The translations under genes and the position numbers were made by a program. From contig JBDKIV010000240.1 of the NCBI GenBank assembly GCA_039796935.1, positions 14,376 through 78,375 on the forward strand: a stretch of DNA of 64,000 nt, given 5' to 3'. Source of the DNA: Actinomycetota bacterium (GTDB lineage Bacteria > Actinomycetota > Acidimicrobiia > Acidimicrobiales > Ilumatobacteraceae). Below, one piece after another: positions 19,818 through 57,257 of the stretch. The first letter of the stretch is position 1. Each line of letters starts with the position of its first letter. The notes beneath the pieces were generated by a model. It was not told where the DNA came from and did not search any database. It was given only the letters and a program-made list of their open reading frames with translations.

Positions 19818-20303
19818 ATGAACCGCCGCAGCTTCCTGTTCGCCGCCGCCGCCTCTGCGCTCGGCGGGTCAGCGGTCGTGGTCGGCTGCGCCTCGACCGA
19901 GACGGCCCCGCGCAGCGGACGCCTGCTCGACGGGGTCTCGCTCGAGGTCCATCGCGATCCTGGTTGAGGCTGCTGCGTCGAGTGGGTCGTGTACCTGCGT
20001 TCGCACGGTGCCTCGGTGAGCGACACCGAAGATGCCGACCGCGCGTCGCTGCGCGCCCGGATGGGGATCCCCGATTCGGTGGCGTCGTGCCACACCGCGC
20101 TGGTGGCCGGCTACGTGGTCGAGGGCCACGTCCCGGCGCCGGCGCTGCGCCGACTACTCGACGAAGGCCCGGACGTGGTGGGCCTGGCCCTGCCAGGCAT
20201 GCCGGGTGACTCGCCCGGCATGGGTGGTGACGAGACCACGTGGGCCGCGCAGGACGTCCTGGCGGTCATGGCTGACGGACGCCTCAGCCGCTTCGGGTAC
20301 TAG
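19818..20303 (+). CDS. CopG/DUF411-type periplasmic metal-binding lipoprotein with in-frame TGA (19965-19967) at the first Cys of the CxCC motif; candidate selenoprotein or nonsense pseudogene
   Basis: ATG 19818 gives a Tat-like signal MNRRSFLFAAAASALGGSAVVVGC..EVHRDPG, then TGA, then GCCVEWVVYLRSHG continuing in frame into track ORF 19989..20303 (SCHTALVAGYVVEGHVPA, LALPGMPGDSPGMGG). The whole length matches the DUF411 pattern. Confidence 0.6.
19982..19998 (+). other. Hand-folded hairpin GUGGGU-CGUGU-ACCUGC 15-31 nt after the UGA; possible SECIS-like element
   Basis: Six pairs including two G-U wobbles, with a pentaloop containing G. The position fits the bacterial SECIS window. Not validated by any folding tool. 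Confidence 0.2.
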
Positions 20304-20824: not shown

Positions 20825-23386
20825 TCACGGCTGGGCGAGGAGCTGTTCGATGATCCCGACGGCGAAGCCCGGCATCCCGTCGGCTGCTGCCATCCGCGAG
20901 AGCTCGGCGCGGAGCAGCACTCGGCGGTCGTCGTCGAAGCGCTGGAACTGCAGCAGGTCACCGACCAGGCGCACGGCGAGCCCGGCGTTCACGGGCATCA
21001 GCTCGATCAACTCGTCGGTGAAGAGGCGATAGCCCGCCCCGGACCGGTCGTGGAAGACCGTCCGATTGCGGGTGGCGAAGGGGAACCAGACCGCCATCAC
21101 TCTCGAACGATCGCTCCGGTCGTAGAGCGGACCGGCCGCCAGTCGGGCGACTCGCGCGATGGTGTCGCTCCGGCGCGCGCCCGACTGGGCGCGGAGCCAC
21201 CGGTCGACGAGCTTCGGCGACGCTTCCCACCGCCGGAACGTCATCTCGACGAGCGCATCGGCGTCGACGGCATCGAGATGCAGCAACTGGCCGAGCGCCC
21301 GCACGGACCGAGTGGCATCGGCCGAGTCGAGCTGCGCCCGCGCGGCGGCGAGCGCCTCGTCCGAGCCGGTCGCGACGAGCAGGGCGAGGACCGGCTCGAC
21401 GAGCGACCGGGCGGCGATCTGATCGGCACGGTACCCGCCGACGACCCCGGCATCGGTCTGGCGCACGAGGTCGAGGAGGTCGTCGTGGAGCGCAGATCCC
21501 AGCACCGTGCGAAGGTGTGCCAGCCCGCCGCCGACCCCGTCGACATCGATGCGCGGCTCGCGATCACCCAGCATGAACTCGTCGGGCACGGCCAGCAACT
21601 GCGCGAGCAGCATGGGTTCGGTGCCGCCGCGACGGATCAGGTCGCGCAGGGCGGCGGCGAGCGCGTCGAGGCAGGGCTGAGCGGCGGCGGTGTCACCGTG
21701 CCGGTGCGCATCGATCGCTGCGATCATCAGCTCTTCCGATGCCCACCAGCGCACATAGGCGTCGTCGTCGTGGCGGACCAGTGCGGCGAGATGCTCGACC
21801 GGGAGCGCGCAGGTGAGATCGACCGGTGCCGAGTAGCCCCGCAGCGGCGAGACGACGAGTGCCTCGGCCGGGGTGTCGGCGTCGGGTCGCAGCACCCACC
21901 GGGCCTCCCGGCCGCTGAGCACCTCGGTCCGAGGTGCGCTGGCTCGACGGCCGTCGAGCGTGCGCAGTGCGAGCACGACCGGCATGGCGAGTGGCGGGTC
22001 GTCGGTGAGGGCGTCGGTCCGTCGAGCGTCGACGACCACCGCGCCGTCCTCGTGCCCGACGGTCAGCTCGAGCGACGGCCGGCCGGCGGTGACGAACCAG
22101 CGCGCGACCCCGTCGATCGCGGCGGCACGGTCGGGTGCGAGTTCACGAGCGAGTCCGACGAACTCGTCGACGCCGGTGGACGCCAGGTCGTAGCGGCGGA
22201 CGAACTCGGCGAACACCGCCGCCCACGTCTGCTCGCCGAGCAGCGTGCGCAGCATCCCGAAGATCTCGGCACCCTTCAGGTAGGTGGTGCGCGTGTAGAG
22301 CTGCGACGGATCGTCCACCTCTCCGCGGAGCACCGGAGCGCCCATCGTCAGCTCTTCGGGGAACTGCAGCCGACGCAGGTCGAGCACGTCCATCACCCGG
22401 CCGACCGGCCCGAGCCAGTGCCGCCGGTAGTCGTTCTGCCCCATCAAGACGGTGAGGCCTTCCTTCAGCGCCAGCTGACCCCACGACCGCACCGTCACAC
22501 GGTTGCCGCGCACGTGATGGCCGTATTCGTGGGCGATGTTGGCGCAGATGAGGAGCAGGTCGTCGTCGACATGACCACGCTGGTCGACGACGAGGATCGA
22601 CGACTCGAAGAACATGAGGCCGTGGTACTCGGTGGCGTCCGGGTATCCCGGGATGGCGACGAAGGTGAGTACGTCGAGGTCGTGCTCGACACCGCCGTTC
22701 GCCTCGTCGAACGCCATCACGTCGGCCATCCGCTCGAGCGCGAACTCCGAGCCGTCGATCTGGTCGGGGAGCGCCGCGACACGCAGGTCGACCCGGCGAC
22801 CCGAGCGCGTGATGTACGGCTGTGACACCACGCGGAGATCGCCCGCCACGAACGAGAACAGATAGGTCGGTTTCGGTACCGGATCGTCGAAGCGCGCCCA
22901 GTGACGACCGTCGGGCAGCGTGCCCTGCTCGACGAGATGCCCGTTCGAGAGCAGCACGGGGAACGACTCGCGCTCACCCACCAGCGTGACGTCGAAGGTG
23001 GCGCGCTGGTGGGGCGCGTCGACGGCGTAGGTGATCCGCCGGAACCCGTGCGGTTCGCAGGTGCTGCTCAGCAGCTCGGGACGGGCCGTGATGCCCGCAT
23101 CATTGATGCCTCCGGGCACGACGTTCACCGAGGTGCCCACCACGTGATCACCGGGGGTGAGCGAGACCGTCAGCGTTCGATCGGTCTGCTGGTAGCGATC
23201 GGACGCCACGACCTCGCCGTCGATGCGCACCTCGAGCAGTTCGAGGCCACGCCCGTCGAGCACGAGGGGCACCTCGGCCGGGCCGTCTCCCGACGGCATC
23301 GAGACGTGGAGGTCGGTGTCGACCCCGACCCGGTGTGCGCTCAGATCGAGGCGCATCGTCACGTGGTCGACACGCCACGTGGACAT
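20825..23386 (-). CDS. pepN: Aminopeptidase N (M1 family)
   Basis: HEYGHHVRGNRVT..(18)..LKEG is the HExxH-x18-E zinc motif, with a GAMEN-like region upstream. The ATG at 23384-23386 shares 1 nt with the upstream stop. Confidence 0.9.
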   Translation of the reverse strand: MSTWRVDHVTMRLDLSAHRVGVDTDLHVSMPSGDGPAEVPLVLDGRGLELLEVRIDGEVVASDRYQQTDRTLTVSLTPGDHVVGTSVNVVPGGINDAGITARPELLSSTCEPHGFRRITYAVDAPHQRATFDVTLVGERESFPVLLSNGHLVEQGTLPDGRHWARFDDPVPKPTYLFSFVAGDLRVVSQPYITRSGRRVDLRVAALPDQIDGSEFALERMADVMAFDEANGGVEHDLDVLTFVAIPGYPDATEYHGLMFFESSILVVDQRGHVDDDLLLICANIAHEYGHHVRGNRVTVRSWGQLALKEGLTVLMGQNDYRRHWLGPVGRVMDVLDLRRLQFPEELTMGAPVLRGEVDDPSQLYTRTTYLKGAEIFGMLRTLLGEQTWAAVFAEFVRRYDLASTGVDEFVGLARELAPDRAAAIDGVARWFVTAGRPSLELTVGHEDGAVVVDARRTDALTDDPPLAMPVVLALRTLDGRRASAPRTEVLSGREARWVLRPDADTPAEALVVSPLRGYSAPVDLTCALPVEHLAALVRHDDDAYVRWWASEELMIAAIDAHRHGDTAAAQPCLDALAAALRDLIRRGGTEPMLLAQLLAVPDEFMLGDREPRIDVDGVGGGLAHLRTVLGSALHDDLLDLVRQTDAGVVGGYRADQIAARSLVEPVLALLVATGSDEALAAARAQLDSADATRSVRALGQLLHLDAVDADALVEMTFRRWEASPKLVDRWLRAQSGARRSDTIARVARLAAGPLYDRSDRSRVMAVWFPFATRNRTVFHDRSGAGYRLFTDELIELMPVNAGLAVRLVGDLLQFQRFDDDRRVLLRAELSRMAAADGMPGFAVGIIEQLLAQP

Positions 23387-24684
23387 CAGCGGCGCCCGAG
23401 GAACTCGCCGACCAGGCCGACCACCGTGTCGATCTCGTCGAGTGTGTTGTAGTGCGTCGGCCCGATCCGTACGACCCCGCCCTGGTCGGCCAGGCCGAGC
23501 CACTCGACGACCGGCAACGCGTACGAGTGTCCGTTCCACACGTAGACGCCGTGGGTGTCGAGGAAGGTGGCCATCTCGGCGGGCACCATGCCCTCCGCGG
23601 TGATCGACACGGTGGGCACCCGGCGGCCGAACGCGGCGGGGTCGGTGATGCCGTGCACCCGGACCCCGTCGATCTGCTGCAGGCCGGCGACGAGGCGCTC
23701 GCTGAGGAGCTCTTCGTAGTGGGCCATCGCTGCGAGGCCGGCGTGGATGTCGCGGGTCCGCTCACGCAGATCGGCGGTGCTGGGCCGATGGGCGCCGCCC
23801 ATCTCGGTGCCCACCCACTGGAGGTACTCGAGCGCTCCGATCGTGCCGGCCTGGCCCTCGAGTGACTGCGTGCCGGTCTCCCACCTGTCGGGGCTCTCGT
23901 CGGGCACCACGCGCAACTTGTAGGAGGGGAGCGAATCGAGGAGTTCGCTGCGACCGAACAGCACACCCTGGTGCGGGCCGTAGAACTTGTAGGCCGAGCA
24001 GACGAGGAAATCGCACCCCAACGCCTGGACGTCGATCGGCCCGTGCGGTGCGTACTGCACGGCGTCGATGTAGGTCATCGCACCGGCGGCGCCGAGCATG
24101 CGGCAGGCGGCGGCGACGGGGTTGATCGTGCCGAGGAGGTTGCTGGCGTAGTTGATGGCGGCGAACTTCGTCCTGGGCGTGATCAGCGCGGCGAGTTCGT
24201 CGAGGTCGAGTTCGTACGTGTCACGGTCGAATCCCCAGGTCTTCACCACCAGTCCACGCTCGGCGGCCATCGTGCGCCACGGGGTGTTGTTCCCCTCGTG
24301 CTCCATCGAGGTGATGATGATCTCGTCGCCCTCGGAGAACGTGGGGCCGAGCACCCGGGCCATCATGAAGGTCAGGGTCGTCATGTTCGGACCGAACACG
24401 ACCTCGTGGGGACCGGCGGCGTTGAAGAAGTCGGCCATCGCCAGGTGCGACCGCTCGACCAGATCGGTGGATTCGCGCGAGGTGCGGAAGTTGCCGTGCA
24501 TGTTGGCCTTGAAGTCGACGAGCGCCTCGCGCATCCGGTCGAGGACCTGCACGGGTACCTGGGTCCCGGCCGGGTTGTCGAGATAGACGCGGGGCCGGGT
24601 CGGGTCGTGGGGCAGCGACAACGCCGGGAACTGGGCGCGGAGCGTGTCGAGGTGCAGGGAATGGCTGGAGGAGTTCGCGGTCAC
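23386..24684 (-). CDS. Class V PLP aminotransferase, cysteine desulfurase-like (SufS/CsdA-related)
   Basis: GTG start at 24684 (VTANSSSHSL) with GGAAAG upstream. The PLP-Lys motif is CSAYKFYGPHQG, and RIGPTHYNT lies near the C-terminus. Confidence 0.8.
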   Translation of the reverse strand: MTANSSSHSLHLDTLRAQFPALSLPHDPTRPRVYLDNPAGTQVPVQVLDRMREALVDFKANMHGNFRTSRESTDLVERSHLAMADFFNAAGPHEVVFGPNMTTLTFMMARVLGPTFSEGDEIIITSMEHEGNNTPWRTMAAERGLVVKTWGFDRDTYELDLDELAALITPRTKFAAINYASNLLGTINPVAAACRMLGAAGAMTYIDAVQYAPHGPIDVQALGCDFLVCSAYKFYGPHQGVLFGRSELLDSLPSYKLRVVPDESPDRWETGTQSLEGQAGTIGALEYLQWVGTEMGGAHRPSTADLRERTRDIHAGLAAMAHYEELLSERLVAGLQQIDGVRVHGITDPAAFGRRVPTVSITAEGMVPAEMATFLDTHGVYVWNGHSYALPVVEWLGLADQGGVVRIGPTHYNTLDEIDTVVGLVGEFLGRR

Positions 24685-24717
24685 GTGGTCATCTTTCCGG
24701 TCGGACTGCTGGCGTCG

Positions 24718-44012: not shown

Positions 44013-45263
44013 ATGATGCACACCGCGACGCTGCGTGTCCGCCGGATGGTGGTGCTCGGCGCATTCGTCGCGGTGATCGCGACCGCCTGGCTCGCCTTCG
44101 GACACCGGGGCCAGCACGTCGCGCGCGGCCTGTTGTTCCCCGGCGCCGGACTGGTCGACGAGCGGCCGTTGCTCGCAGCGCTGTGCCTCGCTGCCACCGT
44201 CGTGGCAACGCTGGCCTGGCTGCGATGGGGCGCGGACTGGCTGGTGGCCACCGCCGCCGGGCTCTCGGTGGTGCTCTCGGCCCTCGCCGTACCGGTGGGC
44301 CAGCACGCGAGCGGACCGGTGCACGATTCGTGGCAGGCATCCGCTGCAGCCCACGAGTTCCCGCTCGTCCTGATCGTCGTCGCGGTCGTCGCCTGGCTCC
44401 GGGCGCTCACCCTCCGGGTCCCGCTGATCGCTGCCTGGGTGAGCGCACGGCACCGACGTCGTGCGGGTCTCGGTGACACCGGCCAGCTCCCTCCGGTCGA
44501 CCGGTCACGGACGGCCGCGGTACTCGCCCTCGTCGGTGGCGAACTGGCCGGTCGCGCTGCGGCAGTGGCGGCCGATCCCGAGGTCGTCGAACGGGCCCGC
44601 CGGGTCGGTCTGGTGGCCCGGTTCCGCACCGGCGGCGACCCGTTGCGACATGACCATGCCCACGCCCGCGCTGCGCTGGCACTGACGGGTCGCGCCGACC
44701 GGGAGACGCTCGATCGACTGATCGCCGACACCGATCGTCACCCGCTCGGCGTGGTGTGCAGCGAGCCGGGGTGGGTCCGCCCCCTCGACGCAACCCTCGT
44801 CGCACTGGCGGTGTCGCGAGCGGGGGTTCGCCCCACCAGGTGGACCAGCGCGCTCGAGCAGCAGTTCGCCCTCGACCGTGGGCACCGGCCGGCCTGGTGG
44901 TGGACACCCCTCGGCATCGGCGCCGGATCGATGCCGGCGTGGGAGCACGCCACCACGGCATGTCTGGCGCGCGCCGCAGGGTGGATCGATCACGATCGCG
45001 ACTGGGAGGCACTCCGCCGCACCGCCCTCGGGGCATCGGCGCGCGGCACCTCGGTGGCCGCCGACGAACGCCTCATCGCCGCAGCCCGGATCCTCGCCTC
45101 GCTCGCCGGTGACACCGAGGCCGGCCGCCTGTTGGCCCGGCCGACGGTGCGCCACGACCCACTGGCCGTGGCCATCGACCTCCTCGCACGACGTCTCGCC
45201 GACGACCCATCAGCGCTCGCTCCCCGTGGGCTCGCACCGACCGAACGGACCTTCACCGCATGA
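44013..45263 (+). CDS. Membrane protein; divergent, shortened paralog of the two downstream Ldi-like genes
   Basis: ATG 44013, 2 nt after the kinase stop. N-terminal TM module with GLLFPGAGL ... LAWLRWG resembles GLSLVFPGGGF ... LVLWWG of the paralogs. VVCSEPGW resembles FFPCEPGW. Confidence 0.6.
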   Translation: MMHTATLRVRRMVVLGAFVAVIATAWLAFGHRGQHVARGLLFPGAGLVDERPLLAALCLAATVVATLAWLRWGADWLVATAAGLSVVLSALAVPVGQHASGPVHDSWQASAAAHEFPLVLIVVAVVAWLRALTLRVPLIAAWVSARHRRRAGLGDTGQLPPVDRSRTAAVLALVGGELAGRAAAVAADPEVVERARRVGLVARFRTGGDPLRHDHAHARAALALTGRADRETLDRLIADTDRHPLGVVCSEPGWVRPLDATLVALAVSRAGVRPTRWTSALEQQFALDRGHRPAWWWTPLGIGAGSMPAWEHATTACLARAAGWIDHDRDWEALRRTALGASARGTSVAADERLIAAARILASLAGDTEAGRLLARPTVRHDPLAVAIDLLARRLADDPSALAPRGLAPTERTFTA

Positions 45264-55520: not shown

Positions 55521-57257
55521 TCAGCCCGCGTCGCCGACGGACGACCGGGCCGGGAGCTCGCACGCCTGATCGGTCTCGATCCGCTCGTGCAGGATCGGGC
55601 ACGCATGAGCACCGGCACCCCACGACGGGAACACCGACGAGTACAGGCCCCCGCCGCCGGCGACCGCCACCAGGATGTGGTCGGGGCTGGCGATCGCGTG
55701 GATCTCGTCATCGGGATCGCCGCGCGGCACGAACATCGGGTTGAGCGACTGGAGCCGTCCCCGGCGGTTGGTCGCCAGTCGCTGTAGTTCGACCTGCACC
55801 TCGCGCCGGCCGAGACCTGCACGTGCGAGCACCTGCGCATGCTCGGGATTCAGCAGCACCGCCGCCGAACCGACCCGGAAGAACGCGTTGTTCGAACCCG
55901 TCGTGGCGATCACCGCGGCCACGGCGCGCAGCAGGCGGTACGCCGAATCGGGGTCATCGGCGTCGTCGACGAACACGACCGAGTGCGGGGCTTCGACACC
56001 CACGACGGTCACCACCGAGTCGGACGGCTCGAACCCGACGGCCACCGACAGCGGCTCCCACGGCGACTCGGCCTCGGCCTCGGCCAGACACATCGAGAAC
56101 TTGCCGGGATGACCGAGCAGCGCCATGTCGGACACACCCGGCCTCGCCCCGCCGATGTTGATCATGCACAGGCGCAATGCTCGCCCGATCGAGGCATTGG
56201 CCCGGTGGCCGGGCCCGAGCGCACCGAAGCCGCTCGCCACCCCGCACGCTGCCGGCACGGGACCGTTCACCACCACGAGCGGCGACACCGAGTGCGTCGT
56301 GCTCTGCACTTCGGACAGATCGAACTCGGGACGCAGCAGGGCGCGCAGCCCAGCCACCACGATCGGCATGTGATCGGGGAGACAGCCGGCCATCACCGCA
56401 TTGACGGCGACCGACTCGATGGTCGTCGCCGACCCGAGCGGCCCCATGATCCCGAGGTCGATCGAGCCGTCGAGACCGGTGGCCACGACGAGCCGCTCCA
56501 CACGCTCGCGAGTCGGCACGATCACCGGGAACCCGTCGGTGCAAGCCAGATCGTGCAGCAACTCGAGCGCTTCGGACTCGTCGGAGGCGGCCAGCAACGT
56601 TGTGTCGGCCTCTGACCGCGCCTGCGCCTGGTCGGGCTCGACCGGTGCCCCGACCGCGCCGGGCGCATCGGTCGCGTCGGTCGCGTCGTCGGGTGAGTGA
56701 GCCGGGTTGTCGGGCGACGCTTCGCCACGGAGCACACCGATGAGCCGCGGAGCCAGGTCGGCCGCGAGCGCTGCCATGGCCGACGCCCCCGTCCCTGCCA
56801 CCGGGTGCGGCAACCGGAGCCGGGGCACGTCGGGCATGCCGTTCGAGAGGGCGACGAGATCGCCCTGCTGCCAGAACGCCTCGGTGACCAACGCGACGAC
56901 AGCGCGGTCTCGACGAGCCAGTTGGATCCCGTCACGCACGGTGCCGGAGGTGCAACTGCCTCAATGTCCGTATGCGGCGATCACCGCCGTGCAGGTGGCT
57001 GCGATCTCGGTCAGTTGCTCGTCGCTGGCCAACGCCGACGCGTTGCCCTTGTTCCAGACCCGCACCGACACATCAGGCATCGCCGCCTCGAGCGCCGCAC
57101 CGATGTGCTCGACGAAGGCCACCGAATCGGGAAAGCCGTTCGCGAACAATCCGATCGTGTCGCCCGGACCGATGGGCGCCGAACACGTATACGGGTCGAT
57201 CGGTCCAGCAGGTCGGCCGCGCGGATCGTGGAACTCCATGCGTGCAGCTTCCCACAT
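55521..57257 (-). CDS. UGSC-family selenoprotein candidate (in-frame TGA at 56961-56963) fused to an uncharacterised C-terminal domain of about 330 aa
   Basis: Track ORFs 56961..57257 (…CTAVIAAYGH) and 55521..56939 are in the same frame, separated only by TGA. The read-through gives AAYGH-U-GSCTSGTVRDGIQLARRD. Start at ATG 57257, or at 57239 (GGGAAG upstream). Confidence 0.6.
56919..56958 (-). other. Hand-folded extended hairpin 3-42 nt after the UGA; possible SECIS-like element
   Basis: In the mRNA sense, the lower stem is CAGUUG/CAACUG (perfect 6 bp, plus-strand 56919-24 and 56953-58). The upper stem is CCGU/ACGG capped by the pentaloop GCGUG. Not tool-validated. Confidence 0.25.

Follow-up and report, generated by a model that had tools for sequence, protein, structure and literature searches.

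CopG of Pseudomonas aeruginosa is a periplasmic thioredoxin-like protein in which a CxCC motif and two methionines hold a tetranuclear copper cluster. It aids copper resistance under anaerobic conditions, and the roles proposed for it are the oxidation of Cu(I), or the interconversion of Cu(I) with Cu(II), and the delivery of copper to partner proteins, CueO among them; both the binding of the cluster and the role in copper resistance are known only for this protein (PMC7558416). The gene discussed here belongs to the same family, DUF411/CopG, and lies in a 64,000-nucleotide (nt) stretch of contig JBDKIV010000240.1 (assembly GCA_039796935.1, positions 14,376 to 78,375) from a bacterium of the Ilumatobacteraceae (Actinomycetota; Acidimicrobiia). 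This whole stretch is called the window; all coordinates are positions in it, and the DUF411/CopG gene is read on its plus strand. Where CxCC has its first Cys, the gene carries an in-frame TGA, and the comparison of homologues described below makes it very likely that 19818-20303 encodes a selenocysteine-containing member of the family.

The other described systems with which this locus has to be compared are the prokaryotic selenoproteins, of which an inventory of May 2026 counts 119 families and subfamilies (PMC13188914), with UxxC as the commonest motif of selenocysteine (Sec, U) in its Table 1. Like the UxxC selenoproteins with a thioredoxin fold (Trx, Grx, DsbA-like, DsbG-like, Prx-like and GOS_C), the predicted protein has Sec as the N-terminal residue of a motif of the CxxC type where helix 1 begins, and Cys homologues predominate elsewhere. 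Unlike in those proteins, the residues of the CopG motif are ligands of a metal cluster (CxCC plus two Met) and not a simple dithiol/disulfide pair. GOS_C, being thioredoxin-like with a UxxC motif, was considered as the same family and rejected, because the window protein matches no model of NCBIfam, which supplies the curated selenoprotein models used in RefSeq annotation, GOS_C model NF045500 included, and because the original description gives GOS_C no Pfam or COG domain.

Sec at the position of a metal-ligand Cys has itself been predicted before, in the SO_0444 Cu/Zn efflux transporter (UxC) and the E1-E2 cation ATPase (UxxC), and also in CopZ-family (2Fe-2S)-binding, YHS-domain and MerT-like proteins, which serve metal homeostasis or resistance (PMC13188914). 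The predicted CopG selenoprotein resembles them in this respect and differs in that their folds and families are unrelated to its own, and only CopG has a solved homologue in which the Cys belongs to a multinuclear copper cluster.

Family membership and predicted product

From the ATG at 19818 to the TAG ending at 20303, the frame translates as MNRRSFLFAAAASALGGSAVVVGC...EVHRDPG-TGA-GCCVEWVVYLRSHG..., and the TGA at codon 50 is its sole internal stop, with 111 further codons open after it. A mechanical list of open reading frames (ORFs) splits the locus into an ORF of 49 residues and another of 104 residues that starts at GTG 19989; public gene calls likewise shorten the gene to 19989-20303 (product P0001, 104 residues). 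When Cys was substituted for the stop, the translation matched the Pfam family DUF411 (PF04214) over residues 89-135, with an E value of 3.9e-23 and a score of 81.4 bits against a cut-off of 27, and phmmer matched the P. aeruginosa CopG structures 6wis and 6wje over residues 40-142 with an E value of 2e-28. Residue 50 aligns with the first Cys of DANCGCCKDW in 6wis, where the motif reads C-G-C-C. Column 50 of the family is occupied by Cys or the predicted Sec, and the invariant columns C52, C53, W56, C91, H92, M128 and M135 are all present in the window protein, so that the set U50-G-C52-C53, M128 and M135 is complete.

The structure was considered on an AlphaFold model of P0004, the closest homologue with Cys, which is 55% identical to the window protein and has a mean predicted local distance difference test score (pLDDT) of 85.6. 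The model runs from strand 1 through the loop R-D-P-G-C-G-C-C into helix 1. In it the first Cys, which corresponds to the predicted Sec50, follows strand 1 and precedes helix 1, just where thioredoxin has the N-terminal Cys of its CxxC motif. The five best matches of this model in the PDB are CopG chains, with target-normalised TM-scores of 0.80-0.83, and thioredoxins and glutaredoxins follow weakly. The mature domain is thereby shown by homology, as modelled on P0004, to have the CopG thioredoxin-like fold.

Upstream of the domain, the translation begins with a predicted lipoprotein leader, whose lipidation site would be Cys24 (19887-19889). All of the 13 orthologues examined have a hydrophobic leader that closes with the Cys of a lipobox (AAGC, LTAC, AAAC, VASC and others), though the RR motif is not in all of them. 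The earlier note, made from the sequence alone, had described an in-frame TGA at the first Cys of CxCC in a DUF411/CopG gene, a frame open to 20303, a Tat-type (twin-arginine) lipoprotein signal and a full DUF411 domain. The frame, the coordinates, the alignment with 6wis and the Pfam match bear out this description, and the motif RRSFLF and the lipobox VVGC are visible by inspection.

Compared with P. aeruginosa CopG, the window protein thus has the same thioredoxin-like fold, the motifs x-C-C-x-x-W, S-C-H-T and G-M-P-x-x-S-P-G-M and a predicted extracytoplasmic location, and some of its orthologues share the linkage to copper genes. It differs in that the first Cys of CxCC is encoded as UGA, the predicted Sec, and in that the gene stands outside any cop, cus or cue operon. 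Moreover, CopG is a periplasmic protein of a Gram-negative bacterium, whereas the window protein is a predicted lipoprotein of a monoderm actinobacterium.

Conservation of the TGA codon and of a downstream hairpin

A protein search gave 948 homologues, and the best 120 clusters were inspected. Among these 120, 33 are full-length with D-P-G-C-G-C-C, 86 are truncated calls of at most 112 residues that lack CxCC and start at V-Y-L after the motif, and one is a mis-framed call. Such shortening, seen in 86 clusters, is what gene callers typically leave behind at a stop codon they are unable to read through. The DNA was then read at 160 loci, 80 in genomes and 80 in metagenomes, and 139 loci, the window included, were scored at the first-Cys column. 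The codon is TGC in 80, TGT in 23 and TGA in 36 of them, while TAA, TAG or a codon for any other residue occurs at this column in none of the 139. All 36 aligned TGA sequences are distinct, and two further TGA forms were confirmed at loci L161 and L164, which brings the number of distinct TGA sequences to 38, mostly from metagenome-assembled genomes of Acidimicrobiia. Assemblies with the TGA form include GCA_964268765.1, GCA_022842355.1, JAWKIF01, CALOAN01 and GCA_041443025.1, the last of which has the window gene itself, while JBDSDH01 and JASJXX01 are Acidimicrobiia genomes with the Cys form. The search for TGA/Cys pairs at the same column, which the earlier note had proposed as a check, has therefore returned 38 distinct TGA orthologues versus 103 with Cys.

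The TGA-type proteins are 47-93% identical (median 62%). Over the stretch that begins 15 codons before the TGA and ends with the stop, 36 of the 38 genes are equally long, and none of the 38 contains an extra stop or a frameshift. On this comparison of sequences, the TGA is in all probability a Sec codon and not the result of decay or of a sequencing error.

In bacteria, the selenocysteine insertion sequence (SECIS) is a stem-loop directly 3' of the UGA, within the coding region (PMC9312934). Its loop lies 17 nt past the UGA in the SelD element that Table 1 of PMC13326102 gives as a canonical example, and a figure legend of PMC2398784 places a G in the apical loop. A comparable element is found in the window gene. 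The hairpin GUGGGU-CGUGU-ACCUGC, which the earlier note had located 15-31 nt past the UGA, is present at that distance from the A of the UGA, inside the codons of W-V-V-Y-L, with six base pairs (bp) and a loop of 5 nt, and it is conserved in the orthologues. The loop lies 20 nt past the UGA and contains G residues that are conserved across orthologues. The element is thus like the canonical bacterial SECIS of the Escherichia coli fdhF type in following the UGA directly within the coding region, at a similar loop distance, and like the published elements, as far as that legend goes, in the G of its apical loop; it is unlike the canonical type in that only the 6-bp core is conserved and a longer lower stem is not kept in register.

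The conservation of the hairpin was measured on a gapless alignment of 36 Sec-type sequences, 69 nt long from the TGA. RNAalifold gives one consensus helix, columns 18-23 with 29-34 around the loop C-G-(U/G)-G-U, where column 1 is the T of the TGA. Over the 36 sequences, 96% of the cells of this six-pair helix are paired; in a seven-pair test the value is 87%, as against 27-57% in slid registers, and none of 500 shuffles attained the observed values. At pair 18:34, 30 sequences have G-C and four have C-G, and in these four a Ser codon has changed from TCG to AGC and the codon after Leu has changed from C to G at its first base. Pair 19:33 is U-G in 19 sequences and U-A in 14, and the remaining four pairs are essentially invariant.

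The codons of the stem are restricted as well. Val+7 is GTC in 33 of 35 sequences, and its entropy of 0.32 bit is the lowest among 42 conserved fourfold-degenerate columns, the others ranging from 0.87 to 2.0. Leu+10 is limited to CTG, CTA and CTC, with the rare CTA in 12 of 35 sequences versus at most two at any other Leu column, and wherever a Sec-type gene has Gly at +8, in 17 cases, the codon is GGG. The suppressed synonymous variation in the stem argues for a further constraint beyond that on the peptide. Furthermore, the complete hairpin, with six of six pairs, is found in 32 of the 36 Sec-type genes versus seven of the 103 Cys-type genes, and the mean local folding energy is -6.65 kcal/mol in the former versus -2.97 kcal/mol in the latter. 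From these comparisons we infer that the hairpin is a putative bacterial SECIS. One Sec-type gene is an outlier (L114:242-310, Y-G-U-G-C-C-T-E-W-S-A-Y-I), with one of six pairs in register; a shifted 4-bp hairpin, GUGG-UCGGC-CUAC, is possible by eye at the same place.

Table 1. Coordinates of the predicted features in the window
Feature	Position	Strand	Description
Predicted complete selenoprotein gene	19818..20303	+	161 codons including Sec50; ATG start, TAG stop
Predicted Sec50 codon, in-frame TGA	19965..19967	+	First position of U-G-C-C (19965-19976), the CxCC of CopG
Predicted signal peptide	19818..19889	+	Twin-arginine-like N-R-R-S-F-L-F (codons 2-8), lipobox V-V-G-C; by inspection of the translation
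CopG/DUF411 thioredoxin-like domain	19935..20243	+	Residues 40-142; S-C-H-T (20085-20096), G-M-P-G-D-S-P-G-M (20196-20222)
Candidate bacterial SECIS core	19982..19998	+	GUGGGU (19982-19987), loop CGUGU (19988-19992), ACCUGC (19993-19998)
Possible outer helix, tentative	19968-19976 with 20003-20012	+	Part of the minimum-free-energy fold that the window sequence gives; would form a longer stem-loop right after the UGA
Second predicted selenoprotein gene, UGSC family	55521..57257	-	TGA 56961-56963, H-U-G-S-C-T

In-frame TGA codons with coding signal on both sides occur at three sites in the 64 kb, namely 19965 (plus strand), 56963 (minus) and 44507 (minus). The second of these is the further TGA-for-Cys case that the earlier note had placed at 56961. 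It is indeed present, in the context AAYGH-TGA-GSCTSG, at the U position of a probable gene of the UGSC family, which is a listed selenoprotein family (PMC13188914 Table 1). Against the NCBIfam model NF041046, 'UGSC family (seleno)protein', the gene has a match with an E value of 5.9e-25 that spans 2-146 of the 147 profile positions; the score of 88 bits lies below the curated cut-off of 125 bits, which counts against the assignment. It also matches Pfam PF24696 with 44.8 bits (cut-off 25). This TGA gene suggests that the organism decodes UGA as Sec, and selA, selB, selC and selD have been reported in all 84 complete genomes of the Actinomarinales, another order of the Acidimicrobiia (preprint 10.64898/2026.04.03.716425).

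The fold downstream of the UGSC TGA shows nothing convincing (z = +1.39); by eye, a 4-bp hairpin, CCGU-GCGUG-ACGG, is possible there. The UGSC ORF runs on for about 400 residues past the UGSC domain through a linker rich in Asp, Ala and Pro, and this extra region has no Pfam match at E <= 1e-4. Possibly UGSC is fused here to a domain that is so far uncharacterised. The third site, TGA 44505-44507 on the minus strand, reads YRGRP-TGA-PVDRR, with a high G+C content at third codon positions on both sides and no Cys-like context, and it is probably the junction of two adjacent genes in the same frame.

Weighing of the alternatives

Several observations weigh against Sec insertion at the UGA, or against the copper-related role that family membership would imply. 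ARAGORN found no tRNA in the 64-kb window, and a search of its six frames for the SelB G1 box and SelD N-terminus motifs found neither; among the seven tRNAs that ARAGORN found in all fetched loci, none is a tRNA-Sec. The conserved hairpin is short, six bp with about -5.5 kcal/mol alone, and the window sequence does not fold significantly more stably than its shuffles (z = -1.37 for 51 nt, +0.73 for 41 nt). Much of the stem is dictated by the conserved peptide W-V-x-Y-L, and five of the six pairs are already formed in 45 of the 103 Cys-type genes, from the codons of W-V-x-H-L, as in Cys forms of Proteobacteria, Gemmatimonadota and other phyla; the DUF411 family may thus be predisposed to a SECIS at this place, where few changes would be needed to create one. 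Only two pairs covary, and their changes may go back to a small number of evolutionary events. The possible outer helix (columns 4-12 with 39-48) is paired in 71% of the cells across orthologues and is absent from the RNAalifold consensus. A scan with Rfam gave no match at the gathering thresholds, and at E <= 10 it gave, on 19900-20100, two chance-level matches and no SECIS; bacterial SECIS elements are poorly covered by Rfam, so that no match was expected (10.64898/2026.04.03.716425). Finally, the window gene has no copper-related neighbours. Since the fold of the single sequence is unremarkable, the case for a SECIS rests on the comparative data, and some doubt about the selenoprotein remains because the sel genes are unseen, the hairpin is small and the evidence is computational.

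Downstream hairpins can stimulate readthrough in other systems. The UGA might be read through without Sec, by a near-cognate tRNA for Trp or Cys with the hairpin as stimulator, or else UGA might be reassigned in this lineage; that the searches of the window found no part of the Sec machinery leaves room for both. However, Cys is the sole alternative at this column, as is classical for a Sec/Cys pair, and the second UGA of the window stands where a known selenoprotein family, to which its gene probably belongs, has its U. The distance of the hairpin and its G-containing loop fit published bacterial SECIS elements, to the extent of the table entry and legend cited above (PMC13326102, PMC2398784), and the Sec machinery has been reported in the same class (10.64898/2026.04.03.716425). 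As regards reassignment, TGA terminates 12 of the 13 genes examined, the exception being the window gene with its TAG; TGA is the ordinary stop of the same genes, and therefore the genetic code is not reassigned. Readthrough of either kind is very unlikely.

Another possibility is that the UGA terminates translation and that the functional product is a cytoplasmic DUF411 core of 104 residues from GTG 19989, without signal peptide and CxCC, in which case the 49 upstream codons would be a separate lipopeptide or untranslated. This is the choice of the gene callers in 86 protein clusters, and most orthologues have GTG or ATG at the V of V-Y-L. Such a start, however, would fall inside helix 1, and strand 1 and the entire metal-binding motif would be lost. 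The segment G-C-C-x-x-W, between the TGA and the GTG, is invariant as protein, although it precedes the supposed start. The block L-x-G-V-x-[FV]-x-V-x-R-D-P-G upstream of the TGA is likewise conserved as protein, through synonymous codon changes, and it is always in frame with the downstream domain. Moreover, the GTG is the Val codon of W-V-V-Y-L, and 17 of the 36 aligned orthologues have there GGG, which encodes Gly and is no start. A functional product of 104 residues is highly improbable.

A decaying CopG gene, in which a nonsense mutation has turned TGC or TGT into TGA, would require a single base change and would agree with the public annotation of a truncated gene of 104 residues. Against decay stands the occurrence of the same TGA in 38 distinct and diverged orthologues that carry neither a frameshift nor a second stop. 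The aligned sequences also show purifying selection both before and after the TGA, the ratio pN/pS (nonsynonymous to synonymous differences per site) being 0.39 downstream and 0.53 over the 15 upstream codons, with a pS of 0.63 that is near saturation. TAA and TAG never appear at the column, and Sec-type genes dominate their whole clade, with 35 Sec to 8 Cys forms. Assembly chimeras of one sequence are not an explanation either, as all 36 aligned sequences are distinct. A pseudogene is extremely improbable.

A sequencing or assembly error at 19967 is next to impossible, even though the contig is metagenome-assembled, because P0001 is encoded on nine contigs, of which the three that were read, from different samples and assemblers (ENA ERZ27315730, Logan SRR35185585 and ENA ERZ922604), all carry the identical 486-nt gene with its TGA, so that it recurs in three further independent assemblies, and because TGA is found in dozens of diverged orthologues.

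Predicted function, genomic context and evolution

If the gene encodes a selenoprotein, the hairpin would recruit the complex of SelB, GTP and Sec-tRNA(Sec), and the ribosome would insert Sec at the UGA instead of terminating. The product of 161 residues would be exported and, by a lipid on Cys24, tethered to the external side of the membrane; its host would be a monoderm actinobacterium of the Acidimicrobiia type. Sec50 would replace the first Cys of the cluster or redox site, making U-G-C-C a UxxC motif; with its lower pKa, Sec would be a softer and more nucleophilic ligand, and it would better resist irreversible over-oxidation in the oxidising extracytoplasmic compartment. The membrane-anchored CopG may thus handle copper redox chemistry outside the cell; it would bind copper, and selenium would be of benefit to it.

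With slightly less than even confidence, we propose further that in the CopG of Acidimicrobiia Sec coordinates the copper of a multinuclear cluster directly, possibly as a bridge, that selenium tunes the Cu(I)/Cu(II) chemistry of a membrane-anchored extracytoplasmic oxidoreductase or chaperone, that Sec is ancestral in the clade and that the SECIS was built from the near-formed hairpin of W-V-x-H/Y-L. If true, formate dehydrogenase and [NiFeSe] hydrogenase, with their Mo/W-Sec and Ni-Sec centres (PMC13188914), would be joined by a natural protein with Cu-Se(Sec) coordination.

The neighbours of the window gene encode an MBL-fold hydrolase, a TetR regulator, MscS, PGA_cap and Usp proteins, aminopeptidase N (PepN) and a class-V aminotransferase. 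The last of these (23386-24699, minus strand; PF00266, E value 1.4e-68) lies three genes from the DUF411 gene, and the arrangement is repeated in other assemblies. Cysteine desulfurase and selenocysteine lyase belong to the PF00266 superfamily; a link of this aminotransferase to the mobilisation of selenium or sulfur is speculative.

The Sec-type orthologues L161 and L164 are on long contigs, and both lie in copper islands. One island contains a cupredoxin, a CopRS-like two-component system, a PCYCGC protein, a DUF305 protein and CopC-CopD; in the other, an ArsR-type regulator and a P-type ATPase are immediately upstream, with DUF305 and CopC-CopD downstream. The PCYCGC-family protein (PF13798) is encoded at L161:12109-12564. 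This family is listed with Sec forms (OS_HP4), and the gene was considered as additional evidence of Sec use; it was rejected because it is a Cys form, I-P-C-Y-C-G-C.

When the neighbours of the 36 Sec-type loci were clustered, the top two clusters turned out to be artefacts of antisense ORFs, and the sole recurrent neighbour is a P1B-type ATPase, at five of the 36 loci (L014, L084, L100, L102 and L105). The representative ATPase, that of L014, has a His-rich N-terminus and the transmembrane motif S-P-C instead of C-P-C. The S-P-C motif is more typical of pumps of the Co/Zn/Cd type than of Cu(I) pumps, and the metal handled by some CopG-like proteins may not be copper.

A neighbour-joining tree of 132 domains, which is crude, places all Sec forms in one clade, together with the 8 Cys forms mentioned above, which occupy at least four separate positions within it. 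The labels in this clade are mostly Acidimicrobiia, Ilumatobacteraceae, Microthrixaceae or Actinomycetota, and every other phylum in the tree has the Cys form. This distribution suggests that Sec is ancestral in the Acidimicrobiia clade and has repeatedly reverted to Cys. A Sec-type gene on a 7.9-kb contig binned as 'uncultured Gemmatimonadales' (L017, CAXMRC010000136.1) clusters tightly with L100-L105 of the Acidimicrobiia; it reflects either mis-binning or lateral transfer, and the binning may be in error.

Two Cys forms of Acidimicrobiia, with TGT, retain the hairpin, L001 (L001:3043) with six of six pairs in the codons of W-V-(V/G)-Y-L and L010 (L010:3040) with five of six in those of W-V-G-Y-L, and both look like recent reversions from Sec to Cys with a fossil SECIS. 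In five other actinobacterial Cys forms (L091, L092, L094, L096 and L097), the peptide is gone and the stem keeps only a minor part of its folding energy.

Recoding of UGA by a SECIS and SelB is already well known, and so is the pattern of a UxxC motif within a thioredoxin-like fold with Sec at a metal-ligand Cys; what would be new is the family. The earlier note had claimed that DUF411 is not listed among bacterial selenoprotein families, and the literature agrees: Table 1 of the inventory of 119 families (PMC13188914) has no entry for DUF411, PF04214, CopG or UxCC, the GOS study and the main texts of the BSepDB and deep-Sep papers make no mention of DUF411/CopG, and a search of the available literature found no relevant paper that joins DUF411, COG3019 or CopG with selenoprotein or selenocysteine. 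In public records the Sec forms are labelled as truncated hypothetical or DUF411 proteins. With high confidence, DUF411/CopG can be regarded as a genuine new selenoprotein family.

This would extend a list of selenoproteins that is already long, and nothing is overturned by it. DUF411/CopG would join the prokaryotic list with selenium at the site of a copper cluster, and the solved CopG homologue makes the role of selenium directly testable, unlike in most predicted families. It would also correct a systematic error of annotation in a widespread family, by which at least 86 public protein clusters are cut to about 104 residues and lack the signal peptide and the metal site. The Sec forms, the Cys revertants with the hairpin and the Cys forms without it would provide a natural series for the origin and decay of a SECIS within a coding sequence, and the finding indicates that the use of Sec is common in Acidimicrobiia of freshwater, soil, wastewater and the sea.

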